A stretch of DNA of 64,000 nt. It comes from Candidatus Abyssobacteria bacterium SURF_17 (lineage in GTDB: Bacteria; Abyssobacteria; SURF-5). Made by a program: the position numbers and the translations under genes. This document shows positions 37,294 through 53,410 of this stretch, piece by piece. The DNA lies in assembly GCA_003598055.1 (NCBI GenBank), contig QZKI01000026.1, positions 2,569-66,568 of the forward strand. The letters run 5' to 3'. The notes beneath the pieces are model-generated. The model was not told the origin of the DNA. It worked only from the letters and a program-made list of their open reading frames with translations, and searched no databases. The stretch's first letter is position 1, and every line of letters starts with the position of its first letter.

Positions 37294-37322
37294 TTGAAAG
37301 ACGATGGAGGGCATGCTATAAT
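37294..37322 (+). promoter_or_regulatory. Sigma70 promoter for the ArsA-like operon
   Basis: TTGAAA-17-TATAAT with extended TG. Confidence 0.6.
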
Positions 37323-37401: not shown

Positions 37402-38565
37402 ATGCGAATCATTCTCTATACTGGCAAAGGCGGTGTCGGCAAGACGACGATATCCGCTGCCACCGCCGTTCGCTGCGCCGAATTGGGCCATAACACCATC
37501 GTGATGAGCACGGACCCGGCCCATAGCCTGGCCGACTCGCTCGACTGCAAGGTGGGGGGGCGCCCCAAGAAGATTGCCGAAAACCTCTCCGCCGAAGAAA
37601 TAGATGTGAACGAGGAACTCAAGCGCAACTGGGGGCGGATACAAAAGTACGTGACAAAATTCCTCAAGAGCCGGGGCTTCGAGGAGCTCATCGCGGAGGA
37701 GTTTGCGGTTTTCCCCGGGATGGAAGAGCTTTTCAGCTTGCTGAAGCTCAAGGATTATTATGAGAAGCAGGCTTATGATGTCGCGATTATCGACTGCGCC
37801 CCGACCGCGAGCACCGTACGCATGCTCAGCATGCCGGACGTCATACGATGGTACATGGACCGTTTCTTCGACATTGAGCGCCGGATTGTCAAGACCGTGA
37901 GGCCGATAGCGGAAAGAATCACGAAAGTTCCCTTTCCCACGGACGACGTTTATGATTCCGTGGAAGACTTGTTTCATAAAGTGGAAGGCATGAAGGAAAT
38001 CCTGACTAACCCCGCAAATGCGTCCATCAGGCTGGTATTCTATCCGGAGAAAATGGTCATCAAAGAATCCCAGAGAGCATACAGCTACCTCAACCTTTTC
38101 GGCTTCACGGTCGACGCCGTCGTAGCCAACCGCATTTATCCGGAAGAGATTGACGATGCGTACTTTGACCGATGGCGCGCAGTTCAGTCAAAATATCTGG
38201 CGGAGGCCCGGACAATCTTTGACCCGCTCCCGATGTTCGTGGGCAAGCTGTTTGACCGCGAGATGGTAGGTCTGAAGCTGCTGCACTCGCTTGCGGCCAA
38301 TATCTTCGGCGACACCGACCCCGCGACGGTCTTCTACAAGGAACCGCCCATAAAGACGAAACGGTCCGACGGGCGGCACACGATGTCCATCCATCTGCCG
38401 GGGACGCACAAAAAGGACCTCAACGTCTGGGTGGCGGGGGAGGAGCTTATCATAGAAGTCGGCAACTACCGTCGCAATATTCTGCTTCCGCGCAGCCTCG
38501 CAAAGACGGACATCGTCGAAGCCAAATTTGAAGGCGATACGCTCAACATCACGTTCGGAAAGTGA
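37402..38565 (+). CDS. ArsA/Get3 family ATPase with C-terminal HSP20-like domain
   Basis: GKGGVGKTT, STDPAHSL, PGMEE, DCAPT; C-terminal LPG..K.DL....GEELIIEVGNYRRNILLP..L......AKF. Confidence 0.9.
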   Translation: MRIILYTGKGGVGKTTISAATAVRCAELGHNTIVMSTDPAHSLADSLDCKVGGRPKKIAENLSAEEIDVNEELKRNWGRIQKYVTKFLKSRGFEELIAEEFAVFPGMEELFSLLKLKDYYEKQAYDVAIIDCAPTASTVRMLSMPDVIRWYMDRFFDIERRIVKTVRPIAERITKVPFPTDDVYDSVEDLFHKVEGMKEILTNPANASIRLVFYPEKMVIKESQRAYSYLNLFGFTVDAVVANRIYPEEIDDAYFDRWRAVQSKYLAEARTIFDPLPMFVGKLFDREMVGLKLLHSLAANIFGDTDPATVFYKEPPIKTKRSDGRHTMSIHLPGTHKKDLNVWVAGEELIIEVGNYRRNILLPRSLAKTDIVEAKFEGDTLNITFGK

Positions 38566-38569
38566 CCAC

Positions 38570-38920
38570 ATGACCGCAAAAAGGCCAGCCGTGGGAGACG
38601 GATTCATCCAGGAGCTTGTGCCGCTTATCAAGAACGGATTCGTCATCCTCCGATCAATCCTCGATATCCTCATCGAGAAGCTTGAGGAAGCTGAAAAGGG
38701 CAGGCAAGTTGATATCCGGAAGGATACGTACGCGTCAATCGTGAATGCGCTCGAGGCCGAAGTCAAAAACGTGCGCCAGAAGGAAGCAGGCACCCCCATC
38801 GGTGAAACGAAAATACAAGTGCTTGAAGCTGTTATCTCGGTGCTTCTCGAACAAATGGAAGAACTGGAGACGAAAACGCGAAAGAAAGGAAAACGCCCGC
38901 AAAAGGTGAAGATAGAGTAA
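38570..38920 (+). CDS. Hypothetical helical protein coupled to the ArsA-like ATPase
   Basis: 116 aa, amphipathic helices, ends RPQKVKIE; 4 nt after the ATPase stop. Confidence 0.75.
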   Translation: MTAKRPAVGDGFIQELVPLIKNGFVILRSILDILIEKLEEAEKGRQVDIRKDTYASIVNALEAEVKNVRQKEAGTPIGETKIQVLEAVISVLLEQMEELETKTRKKGKRPQKVKIE

Positions 38921-38967
38921 CTCTTAGAGAAACGCTCTTACTTTGTCTTCCGTCGTTCGAGCATCTC

Positions 38968-40242
38968 TTATCCAAACCACACTGATTCGCGCTTCTCAAG
39001 CATCTGGTTGATCATTTCTTGTATCGAATCCCGGACGCCTTCTTTGACCTTGTTGACAAGGATCTCGTCGTCCGTTGCTTCCTTTCCATACTTATCAAAT
39101 CGAATCGGCCGTCCGAACCTGATGTGCCACTTGCTTGGCAGCGGAACCAGCCCGAAGAGGCCGAGCAGAGGCCACGTGGGGGTTACCGGGAAATAGGGGA
39201 GCCCGACCAATTTCCCGAGCCTCTCGGACAGCGCAACCATCGGATATATCTCCTCTGCGCCAACGACCGCCACGGGCACGAGCGGTGTCTTGGTCCGCAT
39301 GCATAATCTGACAAATCCGCCGCGGCCGAACCGCTGAAGCTGATAGCGTTGCCTGAAATGCTTGCCCGTACCTTTTACGCCCTCCGGGAACACGCACACG
39401 AGCTCTCCCTCATGGAGCAGCCGTTCCGCATTTTCCTGGCACGCCCGCGCGCCGCCGATGCGTGCGAGAAACGGGGAAAGAAAAGGAAGCGCGCTGAACA
39501 TATCCTCGACGAGAAAACGGACGTCGCGCCCGCTTCGGCTCTCCCGATGCACCGCTTGACTAATCATGATTCCGTCGAACGGAAGCATCCCGGAATGGTT
39601 CGCAACCAGGAGCGCTCTCCCCTTTTCCGGAACATTCTTGATGCCTTCAACCTCGACGCGCCAGTACTTCTCGTAAAGCCACGTGAATAGCGGCTCTATC
39701 CGCTCCGAATAGATAGGATCCTTCCCAAAGTCGTCAACTTCCTCGGAGCGCTCTCGCAGTCGTAGCGCCCCAAGCAGCTTTCTCATCCTACGGGGGGATG
39801 CGATATCAAACAATCTGTTGAACAAGCTGTGCTCGCCGTCTCCGTTTGACGAAAGACCCTCGTCGCTCTGCGTGCTCACGCCCTCTTCGGACGTCGCCGA
39901 TTCGGTTGAAGCGGTTTCACTCGGCGTGCGCCTTCCGCGCGTTCCGGACGTCTTCTCCCCTGTTTTGGACTTTTGTCCCTTGGCAGGCTGCTTCCGTGTC
40001 TTGCGAACGACTGTTCGAGCTTTCTTCTTCGACATATCAGCATCCCGCTGCTCGACAGTGCCTTCAGAGCCCGGCCTTGAGGGCTCGAGCAGCTTGGCGC
40101 GAGTCAACCCAGCCATTCGATTATCTCCCGTGGAGACTCCTTCTGCTGCTTCCTCAGCTTGAGCCGCTCTTTTCTGCGCCGCCGCCTTCTTTCGAGAACC
40201 AGAACGTGCGAATGGGTCACTGCCGAGCACTCTCTTAGGCAT
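38968..40242 (-). CDS. Lysophospholipid/glycerolipid acyltransferase (PlsC/LPLAT superfamily) with about 135-aa disordered N-terminal extension
   Basis: VDDFGKDP, LLVANHSGMLPFD, FPEG, VPVAVVGAEE, PLPSKW; start MPKRVLGSDPF behind GAGGAGG, overlapping the ParA stop. Confidence 0.88.
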   Translation of the reverse strand: MPKRVLGSDPFARSGSRKKAAAQKRAAQAEEAAEGVSTGDNRMAGLTRAKLLEPSRPGSEGTVEQRDADMSKKKARTVVRKTRKQPAKGQKSKTGEKTSGTRGRRTPSETASTESATSEEGVSTQSDEGLSSNGDGEHSLFNRLFDIASPRRMRKLLGALRLRERSEEVDDFGKDPIYSERIEPLFTWLYEKYWRVEVEGIKNVPEKGRALLVANHSGMLPFDGIMISQAVHRESRSGRDVRFLVEDMFSALPFLSPFLARIGGARACQENAERLLHEGELVCVFPEGVKGTGKHFRQRYQLQRFGRGGFVRLCMRTKTPLVPVAVVGAEEIYPMVALSERLGKLVGLPYFPVTPTWPLLGLFGLVPLPSKWHIRFGRPIRFDKYGKEATDDEILVNKVKEGVRDSIQEMINQMLEKRESVWFG

Positions 40243-40999
40243 TGAGCAAAACCTCCTCAGCCAGGTCTCGCAGCATCTCAGCACCCGTGCTGCGAGGATC
40301 ATATTCCCAGATGGTCAGCCCATGGCTCTGGGCTTCATCTATCCTCACATTGAACCTGATGATGGTCTGTGCCAATCGGTCGGGGAAATACTCCTGGAGT
40401 TTTCCGAGAATCTCATTTGCGAGATTCGTGTTGCGATATAACGTCGGGACCACCATGGCCACGCGGAGCTCGCGGCGTCCATAATTCTCCTTGACCGACC
40501 GAACCGTTTCCATGATTTCGGCGCATCCGTCAAGCGCGAAGTAGGTGAGCGACACGGGGATGATTATCTCATTGGCCGCGAGCATAATGTTAATGGTAAC
40601 CAGCCCGAGCGAGGGAGGCGAGTCGAATATCACGTAATCATATCCCCGAAGGCCGTCGAATCTCTGCTTGAGTTTCCATTCGCGGTCGGCGTCGTTCGCG
40701 GCCGACAGAGGAAAATCCGTGAGCGACTTATTCGCTATGATGACATCGAGACCTTGTATTCGCGTGCGACAGACAACGTCGTGAGGGCGGAGGTCGGGAT
40801 TCGATAGCAGGAACGAGACGGTGTGCTCGGCGTTGTGGACATCGAGCCCGAGCGACTTTCCAACCTGCCCCTGAGCGTCCATGTCCACGAGCAAGACCCG
40901 GAGGCTTTTCTCAAGCGCGAAATATGCGCCGATGTTCACCGCAAGCGTTGTCTTGCAACTTCCTCCCTTTTCATTTACGAATGCAATCTTTCTCATCAC
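40235..40999 (-). CDS. Orphan ParA/Soj family ATPase
   Basis: NEKGGSCKTT deviant Walker A, LLVDMDAQG, DSPPSLG, EAQSHG..I..Y; no parB in the window. Confidence 0.9.
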   Translation of the reverse strand: MMRKIAFVNEKGGSCKTTLAVNIGAYFALEKSLRVLLVDMDAQGQVGKSLGLDVHNAEHTVSFLLSNPDLRPHDVVCRTRIQGLDVIIANKSLTDFPLSAANDADREWKLKQRFDGLRGYDYVIFDSPPSLGLVTINIMLAANEIIIPVSLTYFALDGCAEIMETVRSVKENYGRRELRVAMVVPTLYRNTNLANEILGKLQEYFPDRLAQTIIRFNVRIDEAQSHGLTIWEYDPRSTGAEMLRDLAEEVLLNA

Positions 41000-42021
41000 A
41001 TCTCAGATGCCGTGGAAAGATGGATTCTCCGTAGACGCTTGGCGCCTGCAAATGCCAGGGCCGCCTCGCGGGTGGTGTAGCGTGGTTCGAATCCAAGTTC
41101 GCCCTCTGCCTTCGTCCCGTCGGCCACCCACAAATAGCGCAGGTAGTCAAGATGTTGGCTGGGCGCATCAGCCGCGTTGAAAAATCGCAGTGCTGAAATC
41201 ATGGGGTGCGCAATACCGTAGACCATGGGAATGGAAATCTTTCCCATCACACTCACGACCGTGCGCAGAGGCAAGACGCCCTTTCCGACGATGTTGTATG
41301 CGCCCGAGCAGTCTTTCCTGATTGCGGCCACCAGCGCCCGCACGCCATCATCCTCATGCAGCAACTGCACGAGCGGGTCATACCCCAACAGTGTCGGAAC
41401 AAAAGGGCGTCGGAAATAATCTGTTGCAAGATTCCGAACGGTAGGCCCGAGAATTGTCGCGAATCGGAGCACGGTCACAATCGTACCGGGATGCGATTCG
41501 CGGAACCGCTTCGCGAGATTTTCAACCTCGATACGGTCACGGATGTACCGATAGTTCTTGTTCCCTTCAAGCGGATGGTCCTCAGTAAGGAAATTCGGGT
41601 TTTTCGGAGAAGCGCCGTACACCGCTGTGGCGCTTGCAATAATGATTTTCCGTATGCCCGCCGCAGCGCAAGCAGTGAGCACATGCATTGTGCCGATTAC
41701 TTCCAGTTCATGGGCGTATGATTCGTCTTTCACGGGTCGGCTGAAAAAAGCGAGGTGAGCGACCGTATCCACCCTCTGGGCTCGGAGCACCTCTGCAACT
41801 TCTGAATCCGCAGTGGGCTTTGTGAGGTCTATCTGATGAAAATCCGCGGACTCCCGAAACACGCCGGGTCTTCGGATGTCCATGGTCACTATGCGCTTCG
41901 CGAAATGACGGTCCTCCCTTAGGGAGTCGGCCAGATGACTCCCCAAGAAGCTTGAGGCGCCCGTAACCGCGAGACCCGCAGAGGTGGGGATAGTCCGTCT
42001 CTTACCCTGCTTTTTCACCAA
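40996..42021 (-). CDS. NAD-dependent epimerase/dehydratase (extended SDR)
   Basis: VTGASSFLG, VAHLAF, YGA, Y.RDR, DP..QLLHEDD; stop overlaps the ParA start. Confidence 0.88.
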   Translation of the reverse strand: MVKKQGKRRTIPTSAGLAVTGASSFLGSHLADSLREDRHFAKRIVTMDIRRPGVFRESADFHQIDLTKPTADSEVAEVLRAQRVDTVAHLAFFSRPVKDESYAHELEVIGTMHVLTACAAAGIRKIIIASATAVYGASPKNPNFLTEDHPLEGNKNYRYIRDRIEVENLAKRFRESHPGTIVTVLRFATILGPTVRNLATDYFRRPFVPTLLGYDPLVQLLHEDDGVRALVAAIRKDCSGAYNIVGKGVLPLRTVVSVMGKISIPMVYGIAHPMISALRFFNAADAPSQHLDYLRYLWVADGTKAEGELGFEPRYTTREAALAFAGAKRLRRIHLSTASEM

Positions 42022-42088
42022 CGGTGGAGCCCCCTTTCACAGGGAGACGTGCAAGCACACACGAGGGTTCATCAGTGATGATATCCCT

Positions 42089-42117
42089 AATCTAGCACCC
42101 CGTATCGGGATTGTCAA
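42089..42117 (-). promoter_or_regulatory. Sigma70 promoter for the SDR-ParA-acyltransferase operon
   Basis: Minus strand TTGACA-17-TAGATT with extended TG. Confidence 0.55.
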
Positions 42118-42573
42118 GGAACTCCGAGGTGAAACGCTGTCCCGCATTTCAAATGGGTTCTGCATGAGTGCAGCGCGCTGTCTTGACACTACTGATGAAA
42201 CCGAAACAATCTAAGACGGTGAAGACTGGAAAACGGAATCTTCACCCTCTTGGAGCAATACTTGAACGATCGCATGGCCGGAAGTTGCACCTTTGGAGAA
42301 TTGAGAAAAGTCAAGGTTGGAAAAATTACCCTTAGATATTTTTCCGTTTGCTTATGGTGCTGAGTGAGTATTGGCTCACGGGAAATGGAGCGGATGGTTC
42401 GAGGTTTCCCGCTTTGCCACGAATCGAAGCGCTTTCACGAAGCTCTTGGTAATGTGATACCCGATGATGTATACTTCGGAAGGAGCGAGGAGATCCTTCA
42501 AGCAGGCAGCTGAGGAATCCATGCGCAGCAAAGAAAATCAAGGCAATGTGTTCGATAGAGCAAAGGGAGACAC

Positions 42574-43482
42574 ATGTCTCGTCCCGGAATACCCGCTCTA
42601 GCGAGACTCTTTCTTGTTGTATCCCTCACGGCTGCGGTAGCCGCTGACAAACCTCCACGTTCCCAGACAATTGTCTACGGCCAGCCCAGACAACTTGGAG
42701 TACTTGCTGACCGGAAAATAAGGGAGAGCAGCGGACTCGCCCGCTCCCTTCTCGACTCGGACGCATTCTGGACTCACAACGACTCAGGCGACATCCCACG
42801 CTTGTTTTTGATCGACCGCAGCGGGCAAACTCTGGCAAGTCTCGTGATTGAGGGAGCGCAGGCAGTAGACTGGGAGGACATTGCCTCTTTCAAACACGGA
42901 ACACACAATTATCTGCTGATTGGCGACGTTGGCGACAATGCCGCTAAGCGTCAGCTGTGCACGCTCTACGTTGTCCAGGAACCAAGAATTGACCGCGAGG
43001 CCCAACCACGCGTGGGCAACCTCCTGCCCTTTATTACTATTCCATTCACGTACGAAGACGGTCCGCATGACTGTGAGTCGGTTGCCGTGGATGCCACAAG
43101 TGGAACGATCTACCTGGTAAGTAAGGGGAAGGGCGACGAGTGCAAGGTGTATGAGCTATTCCTGCCCGTGGAAGAAGTCACCAAACAGTTGGTTGCCCGT
43201 ATGATCGCAAAGCTCGATGTTTCCAAAGCAACTGCAATGGACATTTCACCCGATGGACTGCGCGCGGTGGTGCTCACATATGGCGACGCGTACGAATACA
43301 CTCGCGGCAAGGCCGAGACATGGACCGACGCCTTCGCCCGCCAAGGGCGCGTTCTAACCATGCCACGACGAGTCACTGGTGAATCTATCTGTTATGGAGC
43401 CGACGGCAAGACGCTTTACCTTACAAGCGAACGCGCATTACAGCCGCTGTGGGAGGTTCCGGCCGTTTCCGACACCGAATAG
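42574..43482 (+). CDS. Exported hypothetical protein, probable beta-propeller (HNDSG family)
   Basis: Signal peptide; ESSGL, WTHNDSG, DWEDIA, IGDVGDN, DCES, ESICY. Confidence 0.75.
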   Translation: MSRPGIPALARLFLVVSLTAAVAADKPPRSQTIVYGQPRQLGVLADRKIRESSGLARSLLDSDAFWTHNDSGDIPRLFLIDRSGQTLASLVIEGAQAVDWEDIASFKHGTHNYLLIGDVGDNAAKRQLCTLYVVQEPRIDREAQPRVGNLLPFITIPFTYEDGPHDCESVAVDATSGTIYLVSKGKGDECKVYELFLPVEEVTKQLVARMIAKLDVSKATAMDISPDGLRAVVLTYGDAYEYTRGKAETWTDAFARQGRVLTMPRRVTGESICYGADGKTLYLTSERALQPLWEVPAVSDTE

Positions 43483-43589
43483 CCACAGCGCTAAAGCAGC
43501 CCTCACCAGTATGGGAACCTACGACCAGTTCCGGCTCGCGATTCACGACAGTGAAGGACAATCCGAGAAGTGAGGCCCTTCTTAACAAA

Positions 43590-44132
43590 TCAGGGTTGCA
43601 TCGGTTTGATGTGAAGCTCAACCCGGCGATTCTGCTGACGACCTTCCGAGGTTCGATTTGTCGTGAGCGGGCGGGATTCGCCGTATCCGACAACTTGAAT
43701 TCGGGTGGGATCCAAACCTGCGCCAACAAAGACATCCGCAACGATACGCGATCTTCTTTCAGACAGCCATTGATTGTAGCTCTCTTCGCCCCTGCTGTCT
43801 GTGTGACCCTCAACAATGACTATGAATTCCGGATATCTTTTCAGGACCTGCGCCACGCCTTCAAGGTTTTGCCTTGCTCCGGGCTGGAGAGAGTATTCAT
43901 CAACGCCGAAAAGTGCCACTGCAGGAAATCTGACCACGAGTTCCTGACCATTTACGGGCTCCGCCTTTGCTACCATATTTAATTCGGCATACAGCATACT
44001 AAACGGACCTTGACGAATAATCGTTTCATGCCTTTCGGAAGTGCTCGCGCAGCCTATGACAAGCAAACCAGACAAAGCAAGCGCGAGAATACACGTAACA
44101 ATGCCAGTTTTGTCCAACACAGCTTTTCTCAT
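43590..44132 (-). CDS. OmpA family lipoprotein
   Basis: Lipobox VIG-C; VEGHTD..G...YNQ.LSERR, GYGESRP, NRRVE. Confidence 0.88.
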   Translation of the reverse strand: MRKAVLDKTGIVTCILALALSGLLVIGCASTSERHETIIRQGPFSMLYAELNMVAKAEPVNGQELVVRFPAVALFGVDEYSLQPGARQNLEGVAQVLKRYPEFIVIVEGHTDSRGEESYNQWLSERRSRIVADVFVGAGLDPTRIQVVGYGESRPLTTNRTSEGRQQNRRVELHIKPMQP

Positions 44133-44172
44133 TGGCGCTTACCTATCTCCATAACTTTATCATTCGGGATCA

Positions 44173-46983
44173 TTACGCGCTTGTCTTTGTGTCCAGCACG
44201 GTTCTGACTCTGGAAAGCAGTTCCTCCAGTTGAAACGGTTTCTGAATGAATCCCATGACGCCGGTGCGCAGGATCTCGTTCACTTTTCCATTTCGGCTGT
44301 AACCCGTCGAGAGGAGGGCTTTGACTCTCGGATTAAGCTCCTTGAGTTTTAGGAAAGTCTCCCGGCCTCCCATTCTGGGCATGACCATATCGATAATAAC
44401 CAGACCTATATTGCCATTGTTCTCTCTGTATGCATCTACCGCTTCAACTCCGTCTCTAGCCACCAAGACCGTATACCCGTAGGATTCGAGGGCGTCTTTG
44501 GCAAGAGATCGCACTACTTCCTCATCATCCACGACAAGGATCAGTTCGTTTCCACCACGTGCCGCCGGCTGTTTGCTTGCGTCCCTCATTTCGGACTTTC
44601 CGCTGGCCGGGAGATAGATTTTAAATTTCGACCCCTTGCCGCGCTTACTCGACACGCTGACATGGCCCCCATGATTTTTCACGACACCATAGACCATCGA
44701 CAAGCCGAGCCCAGTGCCTTTCCCCTTTTCTTTTGTTGTGAAGAAGGGCTCAAAAATTCTCTGCACCGTTTCTTTGTCCATTCCAACTCCGGTGTCCGTT
44801 ACCGACAGAACCACATATGAACCTGGTCTGGCCTCCGCATGCCTTTGGGCTTGTTCCACCGTAAGGGTCTCATGGTCTGTCTCAATGTTCAGTTTTCCCC
44901 CGCTCGGCATTGCGTCACGCGCGTTCAAGCACAGGTTAATCAGCACTTGTTGCACTTGCCCGGGATCGGCTTCCACTGTTGGAATCGAGTCACGCAGATG
45001 GACGTCGATTTCAATCAACTTATCGAAGGTTCTACCGATTATTTCCAGCGTTTCATCCACCACGCTGTTCAAAGAGATGATCTTTGGCTCGTATCTCCCG
45101 CCCCGGGCAAACGCCAAGAGTTGTGCGGTGAGCTCTGCGGCTCGATTGGCGCTTTTCTCGATCGTATCAGCATAGCTGAAAACCTGATGATCTTTACGAA
45201 GCTTTGCTTTCATCAAAGATGCGTAGCCCAGAATCCCACCGAGAAGGTTGTTGAAATCATGCGCAATACCACCCGCCAACGTGCCGATGCTTTCCATCTT
45301 CTGCGCCTGGAGGAGTTGCTGCTGAAGCTGAAATTTTTCTGTGATGTCGCGCGTCACACCCATGAGTCCGGCTAGAGTGCCTTTTGAATCATACAGGAAA
45401 CTGACTTTAGTCTCTGCCCAGATCGTGACTCCGTCTTTCCGGCATATCTCTGAGTCCACCGTGCGCGCCCATGATTTCTCTTTCTGTTCCTGACCCTTTG
45501 CGAATTCCTCCACGAGTGTCTTCATAGCCATTTCAAGGGAAGGAGGAGACAAGAGCTCTTGCATTGTTTGACCGATTGCTTCTTGAGGGGTGAGTCCCAG
45601 AACCCGCGTGACCGAGGGACTGATGTAGGTAAGCCGGAAATTCAAGTCTGCGATCCAGATAATGTCAAGCACATTCTCGGCAAGCAACCGGTAGTTGCTC
45701 TCGCTTTCCTCTCGAGCTTTCTCCGCCTGATTGCGCTGCTCAATCTCAAACTTCAATTTGTCATGCGAAATTCGAAGCTCCTCTGCCGATCGAGCAATAG
45801 CTTCCAGTTCGGTTTTCCGTTTCTGACTTCTGGAGTAAATTACGCCGACTGCTCCCACTATAACCATCATGAGAGCTGCGCCCAAAAAATTGTTTCTTGT
45901 ATTCCTCTTCACCGGGGCGGCAATCTCTTCATAATCGGTGGTCATGGCGATTGACCACATTTGATCACCCAGCTTGATGGGTAAGAATACAACAGCCTTC
46001 TTTACTATTTCTGTTGTCTTGTCAGTTCGCCTCATGGAATGGTATACGCCGTGGCCTTCTTCGCCATCCGTCATCCTTCGGACGATGTGCTCAAACTCGG
46101 ACCAGTCGAAATCTGCGAAAGTATCCTCCTCTGCCTTGAGGATATTCTTGCCGATGAAGTCGGGGTTTGAATGAGATAGTATGAGCCCCTTGTCGTCTAT
46201 AACCCATATGGCGCCCGTGGACCCGGCCTGAATATGGCAAATGGACCTGCCGAACGTATCCACGTTGATCAAGATGGATAACAGACCCAAGAAATTGGCC
46301 TCGTCAAAAACGGGATTGCAGATATAAAAACCTATTGCACCAGGAGAGAGTGCAAAAATCTCGCTCACATAGGGCTTATGGTTCTTCAGCACATATCCTA
46401 TTCCCGGTGCCTTGGAAAAATCCTTTCCAATAATACCGTTCCTGTGCGGAATCCTGTGCAAGACCACCCCTTTTTTATCCATTCTATAAATGGAATCAAC
46501 CCTACCTCCCACGTGTTCCAACAACGCCTCTCCGGCAGCATAGTCGTTGTAAGGTAAAGGCTGCCCTTTTTTGAATTCGCCACTGAAGGGTTTCCTGGCG
46601 AGAAGCCCCAGATAGTCCTGAATTTCCTGAATAAACTGTTCTATGTATTGAGCTTTCTCTCTGGTAATACCGAACATGTATCGATTAACCTTGGTAACAG
46701 TCTCCTCCTCAAACTTCAGAATATTCCTTCGGGTCCAGAGAACGATCCCTGCCGCAAAGAGAAAGCACGCTGCTATAAACAACGTCCTATTAATGAGATG
46801 TATTGTGCTCGGCGGCAAGGTGATGACCCTGATCACGAGCATCTTCCTGAGCCAATTTAGTATTTCCGTGGCTCGCCCTCTAAATATAGTCCAAGGTCTT
46901 CTCAGGCCGCCCAATTTGGTAACCTCTTCCTGCCCTTGGGATTCCTCGAGTGTGACATGTTTCTGAAATTTGAACTTCATCAC
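44173..46983 (-). CDS. Hybrid sensor histidine kinase (TM-Cache-TM-PAS-HisKA-HATPase-REC)
   Basis: GGIAHDFNNLL, NLCLNARDA, DTGVGM, FFTTK, GTGLGL, VVDDE, IDMVMP. Confidence 0.93.
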   Translation of the reverse strand: MMKFKFQKHVTLEESQGQEEVTKLGGLRRPWTIFRGRATEILNWLRKMLVIRVITLPPSTIHLINRTLFIAACFLFAAGIVLWTRRNILKFEEETVTKVNRYMFGITREKAQYIEQFIQEIQDYLGLLARKPFSGEFKKGQPLPYNDYAAGEALLEHVGGRVDSIYRMDKKGVVLHRIPHRNGIIGKDFSKAPGIGYVLKNHKPYVSEIFALSPGAIGFYICNPVFDEANFLGLLSILINVDTFGRSICHIQAGSTGAIWVIDDKGLILSHSNPDFIGKNILKAEEDTFADFDWSEFEHIVRRMTDGEEGHGVYHSMRRTDKTTEIVKKAVVFLPIKLGDQMWSIAMTTDYEEIAAPVKRNTRNNFLGAALMMVIVGAVGVIYSRSQKRKTELEAIARSAEELRISHDKLKFEIEQRNQAEKAREESESNYRLLAENVLDIIWIADLNFRLTYISPSVTRVLGLTPQEAIGQTMQELLSPPSLEMAMKTLVEEFAKGQEQKEKSWARTVDSEICRKDGVTIWAETKVSFLYDSKGTLAGLMGVTRDITEKFQLQQQLLQAQKMESIGTLAGGIAHDFNNLLGGILGYASLMKAKLRKDHQVFSYADTIEKSANRAAELTAQLLAFARGGRYEPKIISLNSVVDETLEIIGRTFDKLIEIDVHLRDSIPTVEADPGQVQQVLINLCLNARDAMPSGGKLNIETDHETLTVEQAQRHAEARPGSYVVLSVTDTGVGMDKETVQRIFEPFFTTKEKGKGTGLGLSMVYGVVKNHGGHVSVSSKRGKGSKFKIYLPASGKSEMRDASKQPAARGGNELILVVDDEEVVRSLAKDALESYGYTVLVARDGVEAVDAYRENNGNIGLVIIDMVMPRMGGRETFLKLKELNPRVKALLSTGYSRNGKVNEILRTGVMGFIQKPFQLEELLSRVRTVLDTKTSA

Positions 46984-47555
46984 GTTTGACCACCGGTCGT
47001 CCGACCCAAACAGACATGGCTCTGCCCTTGGCCAGCAGGCTGAATCTGCGGCTGATTACTTTCCCATCTTGTTGAAGTGAGCATTTTTTGTGCCGGTAGA
47101 AGGCGAATCAAGTGGATTGACGTAATTCCTTATCATGTAATAAGTTAAGCGTTCAGGAGTTATGACCCCTTTTCCTTGGGAAAGTGCTTCCTTGCGCAAT
47201 TGGGGACAAAATCCCTTCAGCTATGGCTTTATCACGTCGGAGCGCAAGAAGTCCCGCCCGTCGGAAAATTCCCGCTTTGCTTGTGCTACCCGGCGCCGTG
47301 TCCCTCTGCGTCTCGGGCCTGCGACCCATCCGGCGGGTTCGGAACAATCCTCAAAGAGTCGACACTGCACACCTCGAAGACATAGGAACAACTTGCGGAA
47401 TTACCTCATTGGCAGGATGTGAGCAGTTGAAACGAAATCATCGCTGTCGTGGTAAAAAAACGGCGGAGCAAGCGGCATGCAGAGAAAGAACAGCGACGCC
47501 AGAAACCTCCTTATTCTTCCTGAGAATTCAATTCTGGCGTTGCGCAGTAATTTCA

Positions 47556-48887
47556 TCAGATGAAGCGTCTCCCGAACGCTTTTTCCTTCCAACGATTTTC
47601 ATGAGGTCTCTGGCGCACGCCTTTTTCGAGGAGAAGCTCCACCCCGAGCTTCTGAATGCGCTCTGTATTCAGATGACAGACTTGTTGCCCCATTCTGGAT
47701 AATATTGAGGCCACCAGGTGCGACTGATATGGGCGGAACGCATACACGCATGCAAGGCGCACTCGAGCGGCATCCATGTATGCGGGAATACGGAGCTGTA
47801 CGTGCGGGTCGGGCTGATAGCCATCCAGAAACGCGTCGGCGGCCGCCATGGCCTCGGCTCGTGACAGGAGACTTTGGAGATGCCGCAACTCGAAATGAAC
47901 AAGCGCATTTGCTATGTCCAAAGCCGCCTCTCCCACGGCCAGGCCATCAAAGCCGAGAAACCCTATGCGCCCCTGTGTATCAACGAATATTTGCTTGTCG
48001 TATACATCTCCATGCAACAGAACAATGGCGGGCGCATCTGCAGCGAGGGGCCGAAACACGTCGGATGCAGCGGCAAGTACCTGAAGAAAGAAGTGCGGCG
48101 CGAACGACTTAATCTGTGTGATCCAGAACTTAATGGTCTCGATTTCTTCGCTGGGTCCGCGGCGCCGCGACCGAACCGAATCGGAAACTGAGTGGAGCTT
48201 TTGCAGGGCGTTGCCCGCCGCCCGTGCGGCCGGAATGAGTTGTTGAGATTTCAGCAGACTGTGAAGCGATTGACCCTCCAACGCTGAAAATACGAGAATG
48301 CCGGCTTTCAGGTCGGCCCGTATCAGTTCCGGAACTGAGAAATCGCCGCCACCCAGTTTCCGGATCGAGTGTGCAGTGGAGACGAACTCCCGAAACCGGT
48401 CGGCAGCCAAAACTTTCGCGTAAGAAAGGCCCTCCGACAATTCAAGCCTCACAACGGCGCGCTCTTCGGGCCGATGTGAAACCAGTTCAGCGTCGGGGCG
48501 TGCCACCAGTGACGCCAAGGCAGGCAAGCGACGGTCCACCCCGTCCGCCTGAAGCATGACCCCAATCGACGGCAACTCCAGTAATTTTTGCCTTTTTTGG
48601 AGAGAACTCCCGGATGTTTCTTGTAATACCATCTGCAAATGCTTGGCGCTGGCAAACCATTGCCCGGCAATGGAGGTGTTTCCGGCGGCATATTCAATCA
48701 GCAGGCAGTCATGCGAACGCGGCCATGCTCGCTGCAAGCGTAAAGGACCGAGCGGAATACCGAGTCGCTTGCTGTCGGCGGAGGATAATTCGAGGATAGA
48801 AAGCTTATTCAAAAGGGAGTTAGTCATTGCCCGCAACCGGTGGATCTCTGCCAGAACGGCGACAACATTTTGAGCGTTTTGCGCCAC
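47556..48887 (-). CDS. Aminoglycoside-phosphotransferase/choline-kinase-like fold protein
   Basis: HRPEERAVV, HGDVYDKQ (Brenner-like), LGFD, GEAALD; start uncertain. Confidence 0.7.
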   Translation of the reverse strand: MAQNAQNVVAVLAEIHRLRAMTNSLLNKLSILELSSADSKRLGIPLGPLRLQRAWPRSHDCLLIEYAAGNTSIAGQWFASAKHLQMVLQETSGSSLQKRQKLLELPSIGVMLQADGVDRRLPALASLVARPDAELVSHRPEERAVVRLELSEGLSYAKVLAADRFREFVSTAHSIRKLGGGDFSVPELIRADLKAGILVFSALEGQSLHSLLKSQQLIPAARAAGNALQKLHSVSDSVRSRRRGPSEEIETIKFWITQIKSFAPHFFLQVLAAASDVFRPLAADAPAIVLLHGDVYDKQIFVDTQGRIGFLGFDGLAVGEAALDIANALVHFELRHLQSLLSRAEAMAAADAFLDGYQPDPHVQLRIPAYMDAARVRLACVYAFRPYQSHLVASILSRMGQQVCHLNTERIQKLGVELLLEKGVRQRPHENRWKEKAFGRRFI

Positions 48888-49260
48888 GGCTCCCAGAACG
48901 ATACCCGTGAAGGGCGCCTCTTTTTGCCGGTATACACTGCACTAAGGGCAACAACTATGCCAAAGACATTATCGTTGTTCAGTGGCAATTCCTTTACCTT
49001 TTACGAGATGAAATTGCCTATCTAAGACCTTCCAGGAAAGGACTTAGGAACCTCTCGTTGACGTTTCCTGTGGAAAATATTCACAGGTCGCCTCGTTCAT
49101 AATTGCAATTTCCCGGTTTCAAAAATGAATCAACTCGATAGGGGAATTTTGCCGATTGCAGGAAATCAGGCTGAAAGAAGGAAAAGAGGGGCTTCTGAAT
49201 GGCGAGACTCTCCTTCCGGTCTGTCCCAGCAGACTCAGGAGATTGTCTGGCGCGAGCCCG

Positions 49261-49295
49261 AAAGAAAAGAGCGAGCCCAGTGTGTAGGCCCGCTC
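49261..49295 (-). terminator. Intrinsic terminator after the phasin gene
   Basis: Minus strand GAGCGGGCC...GGGCTCGCTC-TTTTCTTT. Confidence 0.6.
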
Positions 49296-49322
49296 GGGGC
49301 GAAAACAGAAATTTGTTCGTCT

Positions 49323-49712
49323 TCAGGATGTTTTCTTCGGCAGCCGGGCAACCCGCCTCTCGAGTTGAGCAATTTTCTTCGAGAGCGCATCCACGTCTTT
49401 CTTCGTGGGCAGGCGGAAGCTCTTCAATACCTTTTGGATTCTATCGTCGATGTTTTTCTCAAAGTCCTTGCGATTTCTTCGGGTGCGTTTGCGGAAGTCA
49501 CTCACGATCTTCTTGCCCTCTTTCTCCGAAGCTTCGCCCCGCTCGACGAGGTCGCGCACAAACTTCTCGATTCCTTCTTCCGCAATAGAGAACGCCCCGA
49601 CGGATGCCAGGATCGGAGTTCGGAGCACATCAATCCACGTCCATTTCTCTTGCTTTCCCTTCGGCTTCGGTGCTGCCTTCTTCGTACGTTTTCCTGATTT
49701 TGTGGCAACCAT
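49323..49712 (-). CDS. Phasin-like granule-associated protein (PhaF/PhaI type)
   Basis: LASVGAF, LVERGE, LPTKKDVDALSKKIAQL, Lys-rich termini. Confidence 0.82.
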   Translation of the reverse strand: MVATKSGKRTKKAAPKPKGKQEKWTWIDVLRTPILASVGAFSIAEEGIEKFVRDLVERGEASEKEGKKIVSDFRKRTRRNRKDFEKNIDDRIQKVLKSFRLPTKKDVDALSKKIAQLERRVARLPKKTS

Positions 49713-49724
49713 TGCGTTACCCTC

Positions 49725-50318
49725 CTATTCTCTTTTTCGCGACCGCGTTCTCCGTGGCCGCGAGGCCGCGAGATGAGCGTCTAACCTCTTGATAATTGAA
49801 TCCACTCTCTTCGAAATCGCTTCGAGCTCGGCGCGGCTCGGCAGATGCATCGCCTCTACGAAAGCTTCCACCCGCTCCTCGATTTCGCTTTCGAGAGAAC
49901 GCCGTCGTCTGGTAACCGAACGAGACAGAAGCTTGAGGTAGTTCTTGGCCTCGTCTTCGCTCATCTCTCCATAATCGACGAGTCTCCGATAATACTTCGA
50001 TGCGCTTTCCTCCGCCATTTGCATGGCGCCCTTGCTGGCCAACCTCGACTTGCGCATGATCTCATTGAGAGATTCGCTGCCACGCTTTATCAAATCCTTA
50101 AGGGCGTCGAGCGGGAGCACGCTGCCCTTCGCTTTCTCTTCCTCCGCCATTGCCTGCGCGAGCACGACGCTCGTCAGGTCCTCTCCCGTGCGGCTGTCAG
50201 AGACTTCCACATCCTCGCCCGCCCTCACAAGCTTCAGTATGTCATGCAGGCTCACATAGTGGCTTTCTTTTGTGTCATACAGTTTCCGGTTTGCATAGCG
50301 CTTTATGGTGCGGGTCAT
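49725..50318 (-). CDS. PhaR-type DNA-binding domain (PHB_acc_N) fused to a phasin-like domain
   Basis: IKRYANRKLYDT..S.YVSL, TGEDLT..VLAQ; C-terminal LVDYGEMS...LPSRAEL. Confidence 0.85.
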   Translation of the reverse strand: MTRTIKRYANRKLYDTKESHYVSLHDILKLVRAGEDVEVSDSRTGEDLTSVVLAQAMAEEEKAKGSVLPLDALKDLIKRGSESLNEIMRKSRLASKGAMQMAEESASKYYRRLVDYGEMSEDEAKNYLKLLSRSVTRRRRSLESEIEERVEAFVEAMHLPSRAELEAISKRVDSIIKRLDAHLAASRPRRTRSRKRE

Positions 50319-50367
50319 AGCAAGCTCCTGCTGTCGTTGTTTTCATCCCGGCCTTGCTGCAAAAAGA

Positions 50368-50396
50368 AGTATAACACAGTGCGTCAAAACTGTCAA
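50368..50396 (-). promoter_or_regulatory. Sigma70 promoter for phaR-like plus phasin
   Basis: Minus strand TTGACA-17-TATACT. Confidence 0.6.
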
Positions 50397-50503
50397 TCGC
50401 ATGCGCGACAAGGTAGTCTGTAGAATCATGAAGATGCATTAGCGCCTGCAGGCGAGGCCATGCCAAACCGTGCGATTAAGGGATAGATTCTTCAGTGCAT
50501 ATG

Positions 50504-51937
50504 TCAATGATATAATACATTCAAATACTCGCCCAGCAGGCGCTCGCGGAGTGGGGGAGAGAGCGCGTCGAGCATCTCGTTAATCCTTGCCCAACGGTCG
50601 GGCAGTTCCGCCCCCTCGACTCCCGCCATGGTCAAAAGCTCGACGAAGTGTTCCATGCCGAATTCAGAGGGATTTAGACGAGAATATTTCTCTTTGACTT
50701 CCGCCGCCACCTCGCCGAACTTCACTCCCTTCACCTTCTCGACGCACGCGCGCAGGTCCGACAAGAACCCATCAACCCCCCTGCAGTTGGCCGGATTGAT
50801 AGACATGTGCAGATGTTCCCGCGCGCTCCCCATACTAAACTGGGCCTGCACATGCCAGCCGCAGTCGATGAGCTCGTCCCATAGATGGAAAACGCTCACT
50901 GTGTCCGACGTGAAGGCGATCATATTGGAATCGGTGCGGCCCAAGAGTCTGAGGTCGGGCAGGTCATCTATGGTGTCGCATATTTTGCGAGTGGCCTCGA
51001 GCACACTGCGAAACCTCTCGAGATAACCGTCATCTCCGATGAAATTCACTACCGCCCATGCCGCCGCAAGCGGTCCGGCCGATTTTGTGCTTTGAATCGT
51101 TGTGTTCAGGTGCGTGTAGCCGGTCCATTCCGCACACATGAAGAACTGGTGATATCGGATATCTTTGTTCCGATAAAGAATCAACGATGCGCCCTTCGCG
51201 GCAAAAGCGTACTTGTGCAGGTCCATAGAAATGGATGTCACTCCCGGCACGCTGAAATCGAAATCCGGCACGGGCGCTCCCAGCCTCCTGAAATACGGGA
51301 GCATGAAACCGCCGACGCACGCATCCACATGAAACAGGAGACCGTGCTCGAGCGCAACTTGTCCGATTTCACGCATGGGGTCCACCACTCCATGCGCGAA
51401 CGAAGGCGCGGAGGCGACCAACAGGATGGTGTTCGGCGTGATGGCTCGTCGAACCGCGTCCACATCCGCTTTGAAACTCACCGGGTCCACAGGCACGAGC
51501 ACTTTCTTCACGCAGAAATATTCCGCCGCCTTGTGGAACGAGCCGTGCGCGGTGACAGGAAGAATCATCTCCGGCTCTTTGATTTCGGGTTTTCTTGCGC
51601 GGAAATAATCGCGCGCAGTCTTGACCGCGAGCAGAACGCTCTCCGTGCCGCCGCTCGTGAAGCTGCCCACCACGTCGGCATCTCCCCGGAGATGTTCGGC
51701 TCCCATAGCAACCAGCTCGTTCTCAAACCGTATCACGCTTGGATACACGTTCGCGTAGAGGCAGTTCTCGGAGAGAAACTTCATGTACGTTTCTTTAATT
51801 ACCTCCAAAGCCTCTTCGCCGGGGTCGTAAACATATGCGAACGAACGCCCCGTACGCCAGTCGAAATCGCCCGAGCGATATTCCTCCAGTTTTCTAAACA
51901 ACTCATCCCTCGAAAGCCCCTGCTGAGGAATCTTCAT
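50504..51937 (-). CDS. Group II PLP-dependent enzyme, sphingosine-1-phosphate-lyase-like
   Basis: DWRTGRSFAYVY, TSGGTES, H.SF.KA, HVDACVGG, SMDLHKY (PLP Lys). Confidence 0.85.
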   Translation of the reverse strand: MKIPQQGLSRDELFRKLEEYRSGDFDWRTGRSFAYVYDPGEEALEVIKETYMKFLSENCLYANVYPSVIRFENELVAMGAEHLRGDADVVGSFTSGGTESVLLAVKTARDYFRARKPEIKEPEMILPVTAHGSFHKAAEYFCVKKVLVPVDPVSFKADVDAVRRAITPNTILLVASAPSFAHGVVDPMREIGQVALEHGLLFHVDACVGGFMLPYFRRLGAPVPDFDFSVPGVTSISMDLHKYAFAAKGASLILYRNKDIRYHQFFMCAEWTGYTHLNTTIQSTKSAGPLAAAWAVVNFIGDDGYLERFRSVLEATRKICDTIDDLPDLRLLGRTDSNMIAFTSDTVSVFHLWDELIDCGWHVQAQFSMGSAREHLHMSINPANCRGVDGFLSDLRACVEKVKGVKFGEVAAEVKEKYSRLNPSEFGMEHFVELLTMAGVEGAELPDRWARINEMLDALSPPLRERLLGEYLNVLYH

Positions 51938-52006
51938 GCCGCAAACCTCTCAATCAGAAATAACCTATCCCTCTGCCAAACGCGTGCGGTTTTGGCAAAC
52001 ATGACA

Positions 52007-53410
52007 TCAAACCGCATCGAGCAGTCTGTTATACGCTTCCACTGTGTCCTTTATCTCGCGCTCTCCGTGAGCGCTCGTGACGAATCCTTTGCCCATGAGT
52101 GTCATCAGTCCCTCGTTCCGCAGGAAGGTCTGATGATTGGTGACCGCAGTCTTCCTGTCGAAAATACGAGCGAGGCCGTCCTCGCTCGTGAGGTCTATAT
52201 GAAGAGCTCCCGTCGTCTCAACGTGCAGGATCGAGCCGTAATTGTATGCAAAGAACGGGCAATTTCTATCCTCGAATAATACGTTGAGCTCATTGACCAG
52301 TCGGTCCGTCGTGGCCGCTGCCTTCTCGATTGCATTCGTTCGCTCTATCTCGCAAATCGTGAAGTACGTGGCCGCGCACGAGAACAGATTTGCGGCCAAA
52401 GTCCCTGCCACAAAGCACGAAGGTCCGCCCGACATGATGCCGGAATTCAGGATATCCATGAGTTCGGCCTTTCCGCCCAGCGCGCCACTTGAGGGGAAGC
52501 ACCCGCCCATGATTTTGCCGAGCACCGTAAGCTCGGGGTCGATGCCGAAAAGCTCCTGTGCTCCGCCCAGCGCGACTCGGAAGCCCGTGACTACCTCATC
52601 GAAAATGAGAACAATGTTGTTCTCGCGCGTTATCTTCCTCAGCTCCTTGTGAAATCCCTCTTCGAGCGGTTGCGTGCCCGACTCGCCTCCAAGCGGTTCC
52701 ACGAGCACGGCAGCAGTTCCGCCATCCTTCTCGTTCTCCTCGATTGCTCGCCTGAGGGCATCGAGGTCATTCTGCGGCACAATGACGGTGTCCCCGGTGA
52801 CCGATTCCGGTATCCCGTTTGCCATGAACCTGCCGCTGTGAGGCACCCACAGGTCCACCACAAGTTGGTCGGACCATCCGTGATACGTCCCGCAGAATTT
52901 GATTATCTTTTTCTTTTCAGTATACGCGCGGGCCAGCCGAATTGCAGCCATGTCCGCCTCGGTGCCCGATTGCAGGAAACGAACCTTTTCGACGGCAGGC
53001 ATGTGCTGAACAATTTTCTCGGCGGCAAGCGTCTCGTACTCATCACAGAGCCCGTGAAACGAACCCTTCTTCTTGAGTACTTCCGTCATTCTTTCGATGA
53101 GAGCCGGCGGGTTGTGGCCGAGCAGCACCGGCCCGCCGCCATTCAGATAATCGATGTATCGGTTCCCATCCACGTCGATGAGAAAGGGCCCCTCTCCTCG
53201 GTCAATGAAGACGGGGTGGGGGACCGTGTGCGACAGCATGTGTTCGCATCCGCCGGGGATAACCTTCCGAGCAGCCTCGAACATCTTCGCCGACTTTGGT
53301 GTTTTCTTTTTAATCTCTGCAACCACACGGCCCATGACATCCTCCGGAATGTGCTTCACCGGTTGTGCCGCAAGCCTGTCCATCCTCTCCATGATTTCCC
53401 GGTACTTCAT
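52007..53410 (-). CDS. Class III aminotransferase, glutamate-1-semialdehyde-aminomutase-like
   Basis: DVDGNRYID, LGH, SGTEA, YHG, FDEVVTGFR, LGKIMGG; start could be 53458. Confidence 0.87.
   Translation of the reverse strand: MKYREIMERMDRLAAQPVKHIPEDVMGRVVAEIKKKTPKSAKMFEAARKVIPGGCEHMLSHTVPHPVFIDRGEGPFLIDVDGNRYIDYLNGGGPVLLGHNPPALIERMTEVLKKKGSFHGLCDEYETLAAEKIVQHMPAVEKVRFLQSGTEADMAAIRLARAYTEKKKIIKFCGTYHGWSDQLVVDLWVPHSGRFMANGIPESVTGDTVIVPQNDLDALRRAIEENEKDGGTAAVLVEPLGGESGTQPLEEGFHKELRKITRENNIVLIFDEVVTGFRVALGGAQELFGIDPELTVLGKIMGGCFPSSGALGGKAELMDILNSGIMSGGPSCFVAGTLAANLFSCAATYFTICEIERTNAIEKAAATTDRLVNELNVLFEDRNCPFFAYNYGSILHVETTGALHIDLTSEDGLARIFDRKTAVTNHQTFLRNEGLMTLMGKGFVTSAHGEREIKDTVEAYNRLLDAV

Follow-up and report, generated by a model that had tools for sequence, protein, structure and literature searches.

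A 64,000-nucleotide stretch of the genome of Candidatus Abyssobacteria bacterium SURF_17 (GenBank assembly GCA_003598055.1, contig QZKI01000026.1; hereafter, the window) encodes, within 15 kb, an orphan ParA ATPase, a phasin, a fusion of the regulator PhaR to a phasin-like domain, an acyltransferase with a PlsC-type fold, a member of the short-chain dehydrogenase/reductase (SDR) family, and a Get3-family ATPase fused to an HSP20 domain (Get3-HSP20) with a small helical partner. These genes belong together, as an initial annotation of the window had proposed: they are contiguous in relatives, and the combination recurs in unrelated lineages. As read from the genes alone, the best interpretation (probability of about 50%) is a hydrophobic body, or a site of lipid synthesis, that is positioned by ParA, coated by phasin, and not made of polyhydroxyalkanoate (PHA). 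The parts of this reading are not equally firm. ParA, phasin/PhaR, and the acyltransferase are very likely to be functionally linked; our confidence that the Get3-family ATPase is linked to them is moderate; and a non-PHA hydrophobic body is a plausible cargo.

The source genome (a 4.64-Mb bin, 92% complete, with the window on its contig C14) belongs to a GTDB order of 10 genomes in 8 genera, within a phylum of 11 genomes, most of which are 92 to 98% complete. We probed 20-kb regions of the relatives by tblastn with the proteins of the window; at high-GC loci, neighbors were taken from tblastn and hidden Markov model matches, since greedy maps of open reading frames (ORFs) gave shadow ORFs. 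In two relatives (G003 and G004; such labels are ours for genomes, contigs, and loci), the cluster occupies about 6 kb of one contig: mfd is followed by Get3-HSP20 and its partner on one strand and then, on the other strand, by the acyltransferase, ParA, SDR, phasin, and PhaR-phasin genes, with phasin directly 5' of the SDR-ParA-acyltransferase operon. Three more genomes (G007, G008, and G002) have this arrangement as far as their contigs extend. The gap between SDR and phasin is about 0.2 kb in G003, G004, G007, and G008, and the four genes that fill it in the window are missing there. Given this compact order, the 7.3-kb block at 42.6 to 48.9 kb of the window is a local insertion, and the cluster, which the initial annotation had called scattered, only appears so because of it.

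The window is thus best explained as three transcription units of one conserved system, divided by the insertion. The SDR, ParA, and acyltransferase genes overlap at their stop and start codons and form a translationally coupled operon. Promoter-like sites lie 5' of this operon, of Get3-HSP20, and of PhaR-phasin, and a strong terminator lies 3' of phasin (Table 1). Other genomes differ in gene order. In a genome of the sister order (G010), Get3, partner, acyltransferase, ParA, and SDR are contiguous, and PhaR-phasin lies 29 kb off. In G001 and G009, PhaR followed by phasin directly abuts the Get3 unit; in G009, no partner ORF was found between phasin and Get3. In one genus (g6), three genes lie between phasin and the Get3 partner (L017 of G006, 11093-14466; L046 of G005, 3126-5769): a MarR regulator, an S-adenosylmethionine-dependent methyltransferase, and an alpha/beta hydrolase of 454 to 476 amino acids (aa) with a sub-threshold match to Esterase_PHB (E = 3e-4).

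Outside the phylum, the evidence for linkage centers on ParA. Its subfamily is present in 24 of 401 sampled genomes, including 17 of the 390 outside the phylum, which represent about 12 families and have orthologues that are 42 to 63% identical. Eight of these genomes have the order SDR, ParA, acyltransferase, and four have ParA followed by acyltransferase. Although there is at most one copy of PhaR per genome, it lies within 3.4 kb of ParA in 9 of the 17 (G148, G303, G216, G226, G323, G170, G367, G059, and G077), in differing orientations. A small phasin-like gene lies directly 5' of ParA, or of SDR and ParA, in seven genomes (G139, G113, G294, G059, G271, G216, and G367). Overall, a phasin-like or PhaR-phasin gene is beside ParA in 13 of 18 genome loci and on 4 of 4 metagenome contigs; of the five loci without one, two are on contigs about 4 kb long. 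Three metagenome contigs were picked solely for ParA, and each has a small phasin-like gene immediately upstream. Many of the phasin-like proteins beside ParA have the architecture of PhaF, with C-terminal tails that are AKP/Lys-rich and resemble histone H1.

ArsA-family ATPases adjoin ParA in 6 of 22 loci, including tandem ArsA-like genes in G148, G303, G216, and G367. The full set recurs in at least two other lineages (G059/G226 and contig L140). In G059 (L135), for example, phasin-like, SDR, ParA, and acyltransferase genes are followed, on the opposite strand, by PhaR-phasin, partner, and Get3-HSP20. Across the sample, the combination is found, in rearranged orders, in at least six other families as well as on metagenome contigs. 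Among the first 110 genomes from outside the phylum, PhaR was present in 4 of the 4 with ParA versus 16 of 110 overall, in counts that ignore kinship. A lack of co-occurrence had been named as a result that would undermine the initial annotation; instead, ParA, phasin, PhaR, and acyltransferase recur together.

The acyltransferase provides a more specific link to ParA. Its N terminus carries a peptide (MPKRVLGSDPFARSG), after which come about 135 to 165 aa of basic, disordered sequence and then a catalytic domain with the motifs NHSGMLPFD and FPEG. In the AlphaFold2 model, residues 1 to 136 are disordered, and the catalytic domain has a confidence score (pLDDT) of 85 to 97. The acyltransferases linked to ParA start with [KR]-x-VLG-x-DP[FL] in all seven ParA-bearing genomes of the phylum and also in G148, G303, G323, G170, G055, G318, and G164; the peptide is missing from seven acyltransferase copies that lack ParA. 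A loose version of the pattern has just 4 six-frame matches across the 4.6-Mb genome, and 18 of the 120 closest acyltransferase homologues carry the motif. From the motif, we predicted that the gene for one of these homologues (P0019) would follow a ParA. Both ParA and the whole cluster were found on its 120-kb contig (L140): phasin-like, SDR, ParA, and acyltransferase genes on one strand and, 2 kb on, PhaR-phasin, partner (ending in KVVIE), Get3-HSP20, and YjbQ on the other. Since the partners of ParA/MinD ATPases usually act via their N-terminal regions (PMC11407121), we infer that the peptide is a putative ParA-activating element. In two genomes, ParA is followed by two tandem acyltransferase paralogues, of which only the second has VLGxDPL (L125 of G318, 5110-7613; L123 of G164, 1-1994).

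The catalytic domain is that of a PlsC-like enzyme. The top fold match is Thermotoga PlsC (TmPlsC, 5kym; E = 7.6e-8), and glycerol-3-phosphate acyltransferases (GPATs) and PatA are also close. The protein matches PF01553 at 72 bits, and the NH and FPEG motifs are invariant in 43 homologues, as in PlsC and other lysophospholipid acyltransferases (LPLATs). Motif I is NHSGxLPFD, with a His-Asp spacing that exceeds the classical HX4D. The match to the diacylglycerol acyltransferase family (DAGAT, PF03982) reaches 26 bits (cut-off, 22) but covers only profile positions 109 to 264 and is overlapped by the stronger match to PF01553.

The two other products of the operon are an ATPase of the cargo-positioning type and an atypical SDR. 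The nearest PDB chains to ParA are a ParA (8ray) and Soj (1wcv); it has the deviant Walker A motif KGGxxK[ST] and a Soj-like fold, and family searches of the window found no ParB family among its neighbors. Across 20 orthologues of the SDR, the glycine motif TGxxGxxG is kept, but the position of the catalytic Tyr is Y, F, W, or S and that of the Lys is K or R, so the catalytic triad of extended SDRs is not conserved. We also considered whether it might be a fatty-acyl reductase, which is unlikely: matches to NAD_binding_4 and thioester reductases are sub-threshold, and the catalytic Tyr is not conserved.

Both phasin-related proteins of the window score above Pfam cut-offs. The phasin matches PF05597 at 49.3 bits (cut-off, 28.8) and TIGR01837 at 60 bits, which is under the cut-off of 94.7. 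Its N-terminal tail is rich in Lys, Ala, and Pro, as in PhaF, with the tail at the opposite end. The gene is on the minus strand; an overlapping plus-strand ORF (49125-49697) matches no family. The PhaR-phasin fusion has a PHB_acc_N DNA-binding domain (residues 4 to 62; PF07879, 87.7 bits versus a cut-off of 25), a phasin-like C-terminal half, and a basic tail. Its score for the equivalog TIGR01848 (84.4 bits) falls short of the cut-off of 109.45. PHB_acc (PF05233) has no match in this protein, and the C-terminal half matches PF05597 instead (35.5 bits versus a cut-off of 28.8). A second phasin of 125 aa with a Lys-rich N terminus is encoded elsewhere in the source genome (contig C106, L021, 3919-4296, plus strand). 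It is divergent from two CooC-like P-loop ATPases with GCxC motifs and lies near an HpnA-like SDR (region 1-4300); we considered this second phasin and the CooC-like ATPases as a related locus but found no clear link.

What the coat might cover is constrained by two absences, of PHA synthase and of wax ester synthase/diacylglycerol acyltransferase (WS/DGAT). The initial annotation noted that the window contains no phaC and suggested searching the genome for phaC and WS/DGAT. No match to PhaC_N (PF07167) was found in the source genome, and the best score for the class III/IV PhaC model (TIGR01836) was 22 bits. With these models, PHA synthase is absent from all 10 genomes of the order and all 11 of the phylum, while PhaC-like genes were detected in other sampled genomes, so the absence of phaC extends well beyond the window. 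In particular, no PHA synthase elsewhere in the genome accounts for the phasin and PhaR, as a canonical phaCAB locus would have. WS/DGAT (PF03007) was not found in the source genome either, nor in four relatives that are 97 to 98% complete (G001, G003, G004, and G009). In five other genomes, the identical search found 1 to 7 copies, and in G010 it found 2, which makes the negative result valid.

Of the 10 genomes in the order, 9 have PhaR itself, as does G010. In a sample with one genome per family, 16 of 110 genomes outside the phylum contain PhaR, and 6 contain a PhaC-like gene; PhaC is missing from 10 to 11 of the 16 with PhaR. Thus, PhaR without PhaC is common. Matches to PF05597 were also found in our control genomes of Synechococcus elongatus, Methanosarcina acetivorans, and Thermus thermophilus, none of which is known to make PHA, so PF05597 is not specific to PHA. 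PhaC-like domains (98 to 126 bits to TIGR01836) were seen within open frames of about 1,030 to 1,085 aa in two genomes (G148:C239:6397-7341 and G303:C25:44638-45606), which may encode a fused or unusual synthase-like protein.

In a lineage that lacks both PHA synthase and WS/DGAT, the PlsC-fold acyltransferase most likely makes an ester lipid as the product, rather than PHA being formed. A non-PHA body is plausible because there is no PhaC, because PhaR and phasins bind hydrophobic surfaces, because other carriers have patatin or WS/DGAT, and because an LPLAT-clan enzyme has a precedent in cyanobacteria. In G077 (L136), a patatin lipase (PF01734, 106 bits; 8579-9823) lies between PhaR and ParA and converges on ParA, and there is no PhaC. 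In a different family, an ORF homologous to this patatin follows PhaR (L114 of G080, 4776-5993). The initial annotation had proposed a biogenesis, targeting, and positioning system for inclusions of triacylglycerol (TAG) or wax: the linked genes and the lack of a PHA synthase fit this proposal, while no WS/DGAT was found that would support the TAG/wax chemistry.

The Get3-HSP20 protein scores 273 bits against TIGR00345 (cut-off, 135). Its nearest PDB chains are archaeal Get3 (3zq6/3ug6), and Get3d from Nostoc (3igf) scores 100 bits. Identity to orthologues is 81 to 85% for the order and 61% for the sister order. The score for the NosAFP equivalog (NF050088) is 183.6 bits, under its cut-off of 325. 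No type II reaction-center gene (PF00124) was found in the source genome, with Synechococcus as the positive control; type I reaction centers were not searched for. PF17886, the family of the C-terminal domain, also matches ordinary small heat-shock proteins, so counts of the fusion were filtered by ORF length. A search of genome contigs for loci related to Get3-HSP20 returned close relatives only, and a search for contigs encoding the PhaR of the window returned no match.

A small ORF directly 3' of Get3-HSP20 recurs across phyla. In the window, its product consists of an N-terminal hydrophobic or amphipathic helix (LVPLIKNGFVILRSILDILI), an acidic coiled coil, and a basic tail ending in KVKIE. 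What the partner ORFs have in common is an amphipathic helix of the form "LRSILDxxIE" and, at the C terminus, an [IV]-x-[IV] that hardly varies, with ends such as KVKIE, KVEIK, KITIQE, KIEIE, and KVVIE. Small heat-shock proteins dock a C-terminal I-x-I/V motif in the beta4-beta8 groove of alpha-crystallin domains, and by analogy, the end of the partner resembles a docking motif. We rejected the idea that the partner is itself a phasin, since the two are not homologous (hhalign probability of 0.4%). On contig L140 (region 11237-13263), where YjbQ precedes Get3-HSP20, the partner has a weak match to a new Pfam family, PF27253 (AF_1253).

These features suggest how the system might work. Both the phasin and the PhaR-phasin fusion would bind the hydrophobic surface, and PhaR-phasin would leave its operator once such a surface appears. 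The tailed phasin would tether the body to the nucleoid, like PhaF. The link between ParA and its cargo may be the extreme N-terminal peptide of the acyltransferase (K-x-VLG-x-DPF) with its basic disordered linker, the phasin-like protein encoded upstream, or both. ParA would then space and segregate the acyltransferase, and the body built by it, over the nucleoid, as McdA/McdB do with carboxysomes. The partner would dock through its C-terminal I-x-I in the alpha-crystallin domain of Get3-HSP20, and the two would chaperone or target hydrophobic or amphipathic helices to the body. In its fullest and more tentative form, which we think has well under an even chance, this is a lipid-body organelle of four parts: a peptide-bearing synthase spaced by an ATP-driven ParA gradient, a PhaF-like coat and tether, a PhaR-phasin surface sensor, and a Get3-alpha-crystallin targeting chaperone loaded via an I-x-I-tailed partner. 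Such a system would make the acyltransferase a synthase of a new kind, for storage lipid (or an ester polymer).

Several observations weigh against a ParA-positioned body, including some that appear with the alternatives below. First, the genomes are metagenome bins throughout, and the body, its lipid product and chemistry, and the interactions are predictions from gene content, absences, neighborhoods, and motifs. Second, four genomes from three genera of the order (G001, G009, G005, and G006) lack the ParA of the cluster and have an SDR-acyltransferase pair, 40 to 50% identical, elsewhere. Third, Get3-HSP20 fusions are present in 12 of 110 genomes outside the phylum; there, and apart from the two other lineages with the full set, they do not adjoin PhaR or phasin. 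Fourth, the known PhaR operator CTGCN3GCAG has 35 matches versus 32.6 expected, with none in the three promoter regions. The upstream regions of Get3 and PhaR have only an 8-mer (TTGACGCA) in common, which is no evidence of a regulon. Finally, our co-occurrence counts are uncorrected for phylogeny.

The strongest alternative, which we consider unlikely but worth taking seriously, retains the linkage and drops the storage body. ParA would distribute a membrane-lipid complex of acyltransferase and SDR along the nucleoid or the membrane, with the phasin-like proteins as adaptors and the PhaR-like protein as a general regulator of lipid or carbon metabolism. Indeed, the acyltransferase has an ordinary PlsC/GPAT fold with intact catalytic motifs and could make membrane phospholipid, and the source genome contains four further PF01553 enzymes. 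Without ParA, phasin, or Get3 nearby, the pair of SDR and acyltransferase is found very widely, with at least 7,940 homologues and an identity of about 60% across phyla, and it looks like housekeeping: in Polyangiaceae (Myxococcota), for instance, SDR and acyltransferase are followed by truB. None of the cluster proteins has a transmembrane segment, and most of the ParA-adjacent phasin-like proteins are below the cut-off for PF05597 and also resemble coiled coils of the BMFP/UbiK type. However, the phasin and the PhaR fusion of the window exceed the Pfam cut-offs, and histone-like tails as in PhaF together with a PhaR domain are hallmarks of inclusion-associated systems. Also, other genomes have a patatin lipase beside PhaR, and all five of the outside genomes with the ParA cluster that we tested contain WS/DGAT.

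Could the genes be neighbors by descent only, with Get3 and its partner, SDR-ParA-acyltransferase, and PhaR with phasin as independent modules in a small phylum? Synteny across the order does extend to unrelated genes (mfd, molybdenum cofactor genes such as moaA, and the 5-formyltetrahydrofolate cyclo-ligase), so adjacency within the order is by itself weak evidence. Get3-HSP20 is mostly elsewhere in other phyla, and PhaR-phasin of G010 is far from the rest. But descent does not explain rearranged orders in at least six other families and on metagenome contigs, the proximity of a gene with one copy per genome at most to ParA in 9 of 17 carriers, or the success of the motif-based prediction for P0019. 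We consider this explanation improbable overall; where ParA, phasin, PhaR, and the acyltransferase are concerned, it is already mostly refuted. Finally, it is very improbable that ParA, phasin, and PhaR position PHA granules after all, with a synthase that is unassembled or of an unrecognized type: phasin and PhaR are classic PHA-granule proteins, the source bin is 92% complete, and a class-III-like PhaC is found in 5 to 7 of the 17 outside carriers, where the cargo could be PHA, but PhaC is missing in 10 of those 17, in every genome of the phylum, and in most of the sampled genomes with PhaR.

All of the genes named in the initial annotation were confirmed by the ORF listing and family searches (Table 1), but not all of them belong to the ParA-phasin system. 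The promoter of PhaR and the terminator after phasin exclude both the gene for an enzyme like sphingosine-1-phosphate (S1P) lyase, which had been listed with the rest, and the aminoglycoside phosphotransferase (APH)-fold kinase from the PhaR unit. In relatives, PhaR has no S1P-lyase-like gene beside it, and we rejected this gene as a member; the kinase, which is behind the terminator and is not kept in relatives, was rejected as well. Unlike the S1P lyases of solved structure, the S1P-lyase-like enzyme has no N-terminal membrane segment (the alignment starts at chain residue 70). Its gene heads a string at 50504-56492 in which a class III aminotransferase and a thiamine pyrophosphate enzyme follow, and a paralogue that is 43% identical lies at G000:C23:6967-8190. 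Within the inserted block, the histidine kinase is of the dCache-PAS hybrid type, and the secreted 302-aa protein matches no family.

Table 1. Features of the ParA-phasin cluster and its surroundings, in window coordinates
Feature	Position	Strand	Evidence or remarks
Sigma-70-like promoter upstream of the Get3-HSP20 gene	37294..37322	+	TTGAAA-17-TATAAT, TG upstream, 11/12 matches; consensus match only
ArsA/Get3-family ATPase with C-terminal alpha-crystallin (ArsA_HSP20) domain, 387 aa	37402..38565	+	PF02374 319.7 bits, PF17886 69.7 bits
Small helical partner of Get3-HSP20, 116 aa	38570..38920	+	Matches no family; starts 5 nt 3' of Get3-HSP20
PlsC/GPAT-fold acyltransferase, 424 aa	38968..40242	-	PF01553 72 bits, PF03982 26 bits (partial); ORF extends to 40302
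Orphan Soj-type ParA ATPase	40235..40999	-	AAA_31 144.6 bits; deviant Walker A KGGSCKTT
Extended-SDR-like protein, 341 aa, first gene of the SDR-ParA-acyltransferase operon	40996..42021	-	PF01370 93.7 bits
Sigma-70-like promoter upstream of the SDR-ParA-acyltransferase operon	42089..42117	-	TTGACA-17-TAGATT, 10/12 matches; consensus match only
Lineage-specific inserted block, outside the system	42574..48887		Secreted 302-aa protein, OmpA lipoprotein, hybrid histidine kinase, APH-fold kinase
Intrinsic-terminator-like hairpin ending the PhaR-phasin unit	49269..49295	-	11-bp stem, 7 GC pairs, T tail, 28 nt past the phasin stop
Phasin, 129 aa	49323..49712	-	PF05597 49.3 bits
PhaR-phasin fusion, 197 aa	49725..50318	-	PHB_acc_N (PF07879) 87.7 bits, PF05597 35.5 bits
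Sigma-70-like promoter of the PhaR-phasin unit	50368..50396	-	TTGACA-17-TATACT, with TG, 11/12 matches
S1P-lyase-like pyridoxal phosphate enzyme	50504..51937	-	323 bits to Symbiobacterium S1P lyase 3mad

A gene set that recurs in such distant bacteria points to undescribed machinery, as predicted here, for making and spacing fat-like bodies, parts of which resemble known systems. The PhaR-PhaP circuit and PhaF (Cupriavidus necator, Paracoccus denitrificans, and Pseudomonas putida) have the same PHB_acc_N and PF05597 phasin domains, and in both cases regulator and phasin are grouped in a small unit under a promoter of their own. PhaF has a histone-H1-like Lys/Ala/Pro tail, as the phasin does, but in this phylum the basic tail is N-terminal. 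Unlike in the PhaR-PhaP circuit, there is no PHA synthase in the phylum, and the C-terminal half of the regulator is a phasin domain rather than PF05233. Known pha loci do not include ParA, a PlsC-fold acyltransferase, or a Get3-family ATPase, which are all genetically coupled to the PhaR-phasin unit here. For PhaR and phasin in genomes without PhaC, the conserved acyltransferase and the patatin neighbors point to a lipid target.

Like McdA-McdB, PomXYZ, and ParA-ParB, the system has a ParA with a deviant Walker A motif, here an orphan of the Soj type without ParB. A neighbor has a conserved basic N-terminal peptide, a candidate for the kind of element that usually activates ParA in ParA/MinD positioning systems, and a disordered basic linker. 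In contrast to those systems, the role of cargo or adaptor would fall to an enzyme (the acyltransferase), a phasin-like protein, or both. No ParA for polyhydroxybutyrate (PHB) granules or for lipid bodies appears in reviews of 2024 and 2025 (PMC11407121, PMC13052382) or turned up in our literature searches. In organelle-positioning reviews, no ATPase is known for storage granules, and energy dependence is given as "unknown" (PMC13052382). With a ParA subfamily that is genetically tied to phasin and PhaR in many lineages, the positioning of storage granules by an ATPase is now testable.

Get3d of cyanobacteria, green bacteria, and chloroplasts (3igf, 8egk, and 8elf) also has a single ArsA/Get3 ATPase domain followed by ArsA_HSP20. 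However, the ATPase domain in the window has its closer match in archaeal Get3 (163 bits, versus 100 bits for Nostoc Get3d), the protein scores under the NosAFP cut-off, and no type II reaction-center gene accompanies it. Get3d has lipid-like density in its chamber, no known partner, and no known role for its alpha-crystallin domain (PMC10248533); here, a small partner ending in I-x-I is conserved. This gene downstream of Get3-HSP20 provides a concrete docking hypothesis for the alpha-crystallin domain of Get3d. The tandem, translationally coupled, single-domain ArsA-like genes by the ParA-PhaR module in G148, G303, G216, and G367 are instead reminiscent of the tandem Get3-like ATPases BagA/BagB (Rv3679/Rv3680) of mycobacteria; Get3-HSP20 of the window scores just 40 and 61 bits for the BagA/BagB equivalogs, whose cut-offs are 400 and 521.

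The neutral-lipid bodies of Rhodococcus, with WS/DGAT (AtfA) and TadA/MLDS-MLDSR, share with our proposal the idea of a coat protein and a DNA-binding regulator on a droplet. They differ in that our system lacks WS/DGAT, its acyltransferase resembles PlsC and has no more than the partial match to DAGAT, and the body is a prediction. If the acyltransferase does make storage lipid, it would represent a bacterial route to neutral lipid that does not need WS/DGAT. That the synthase can be an acyltransferase of the LPLAT clan has a precedent in slr2103, an LPLAT/DGAT2-like enzyme that sits on cyanobacterial lipid droplets (PMC12223511).

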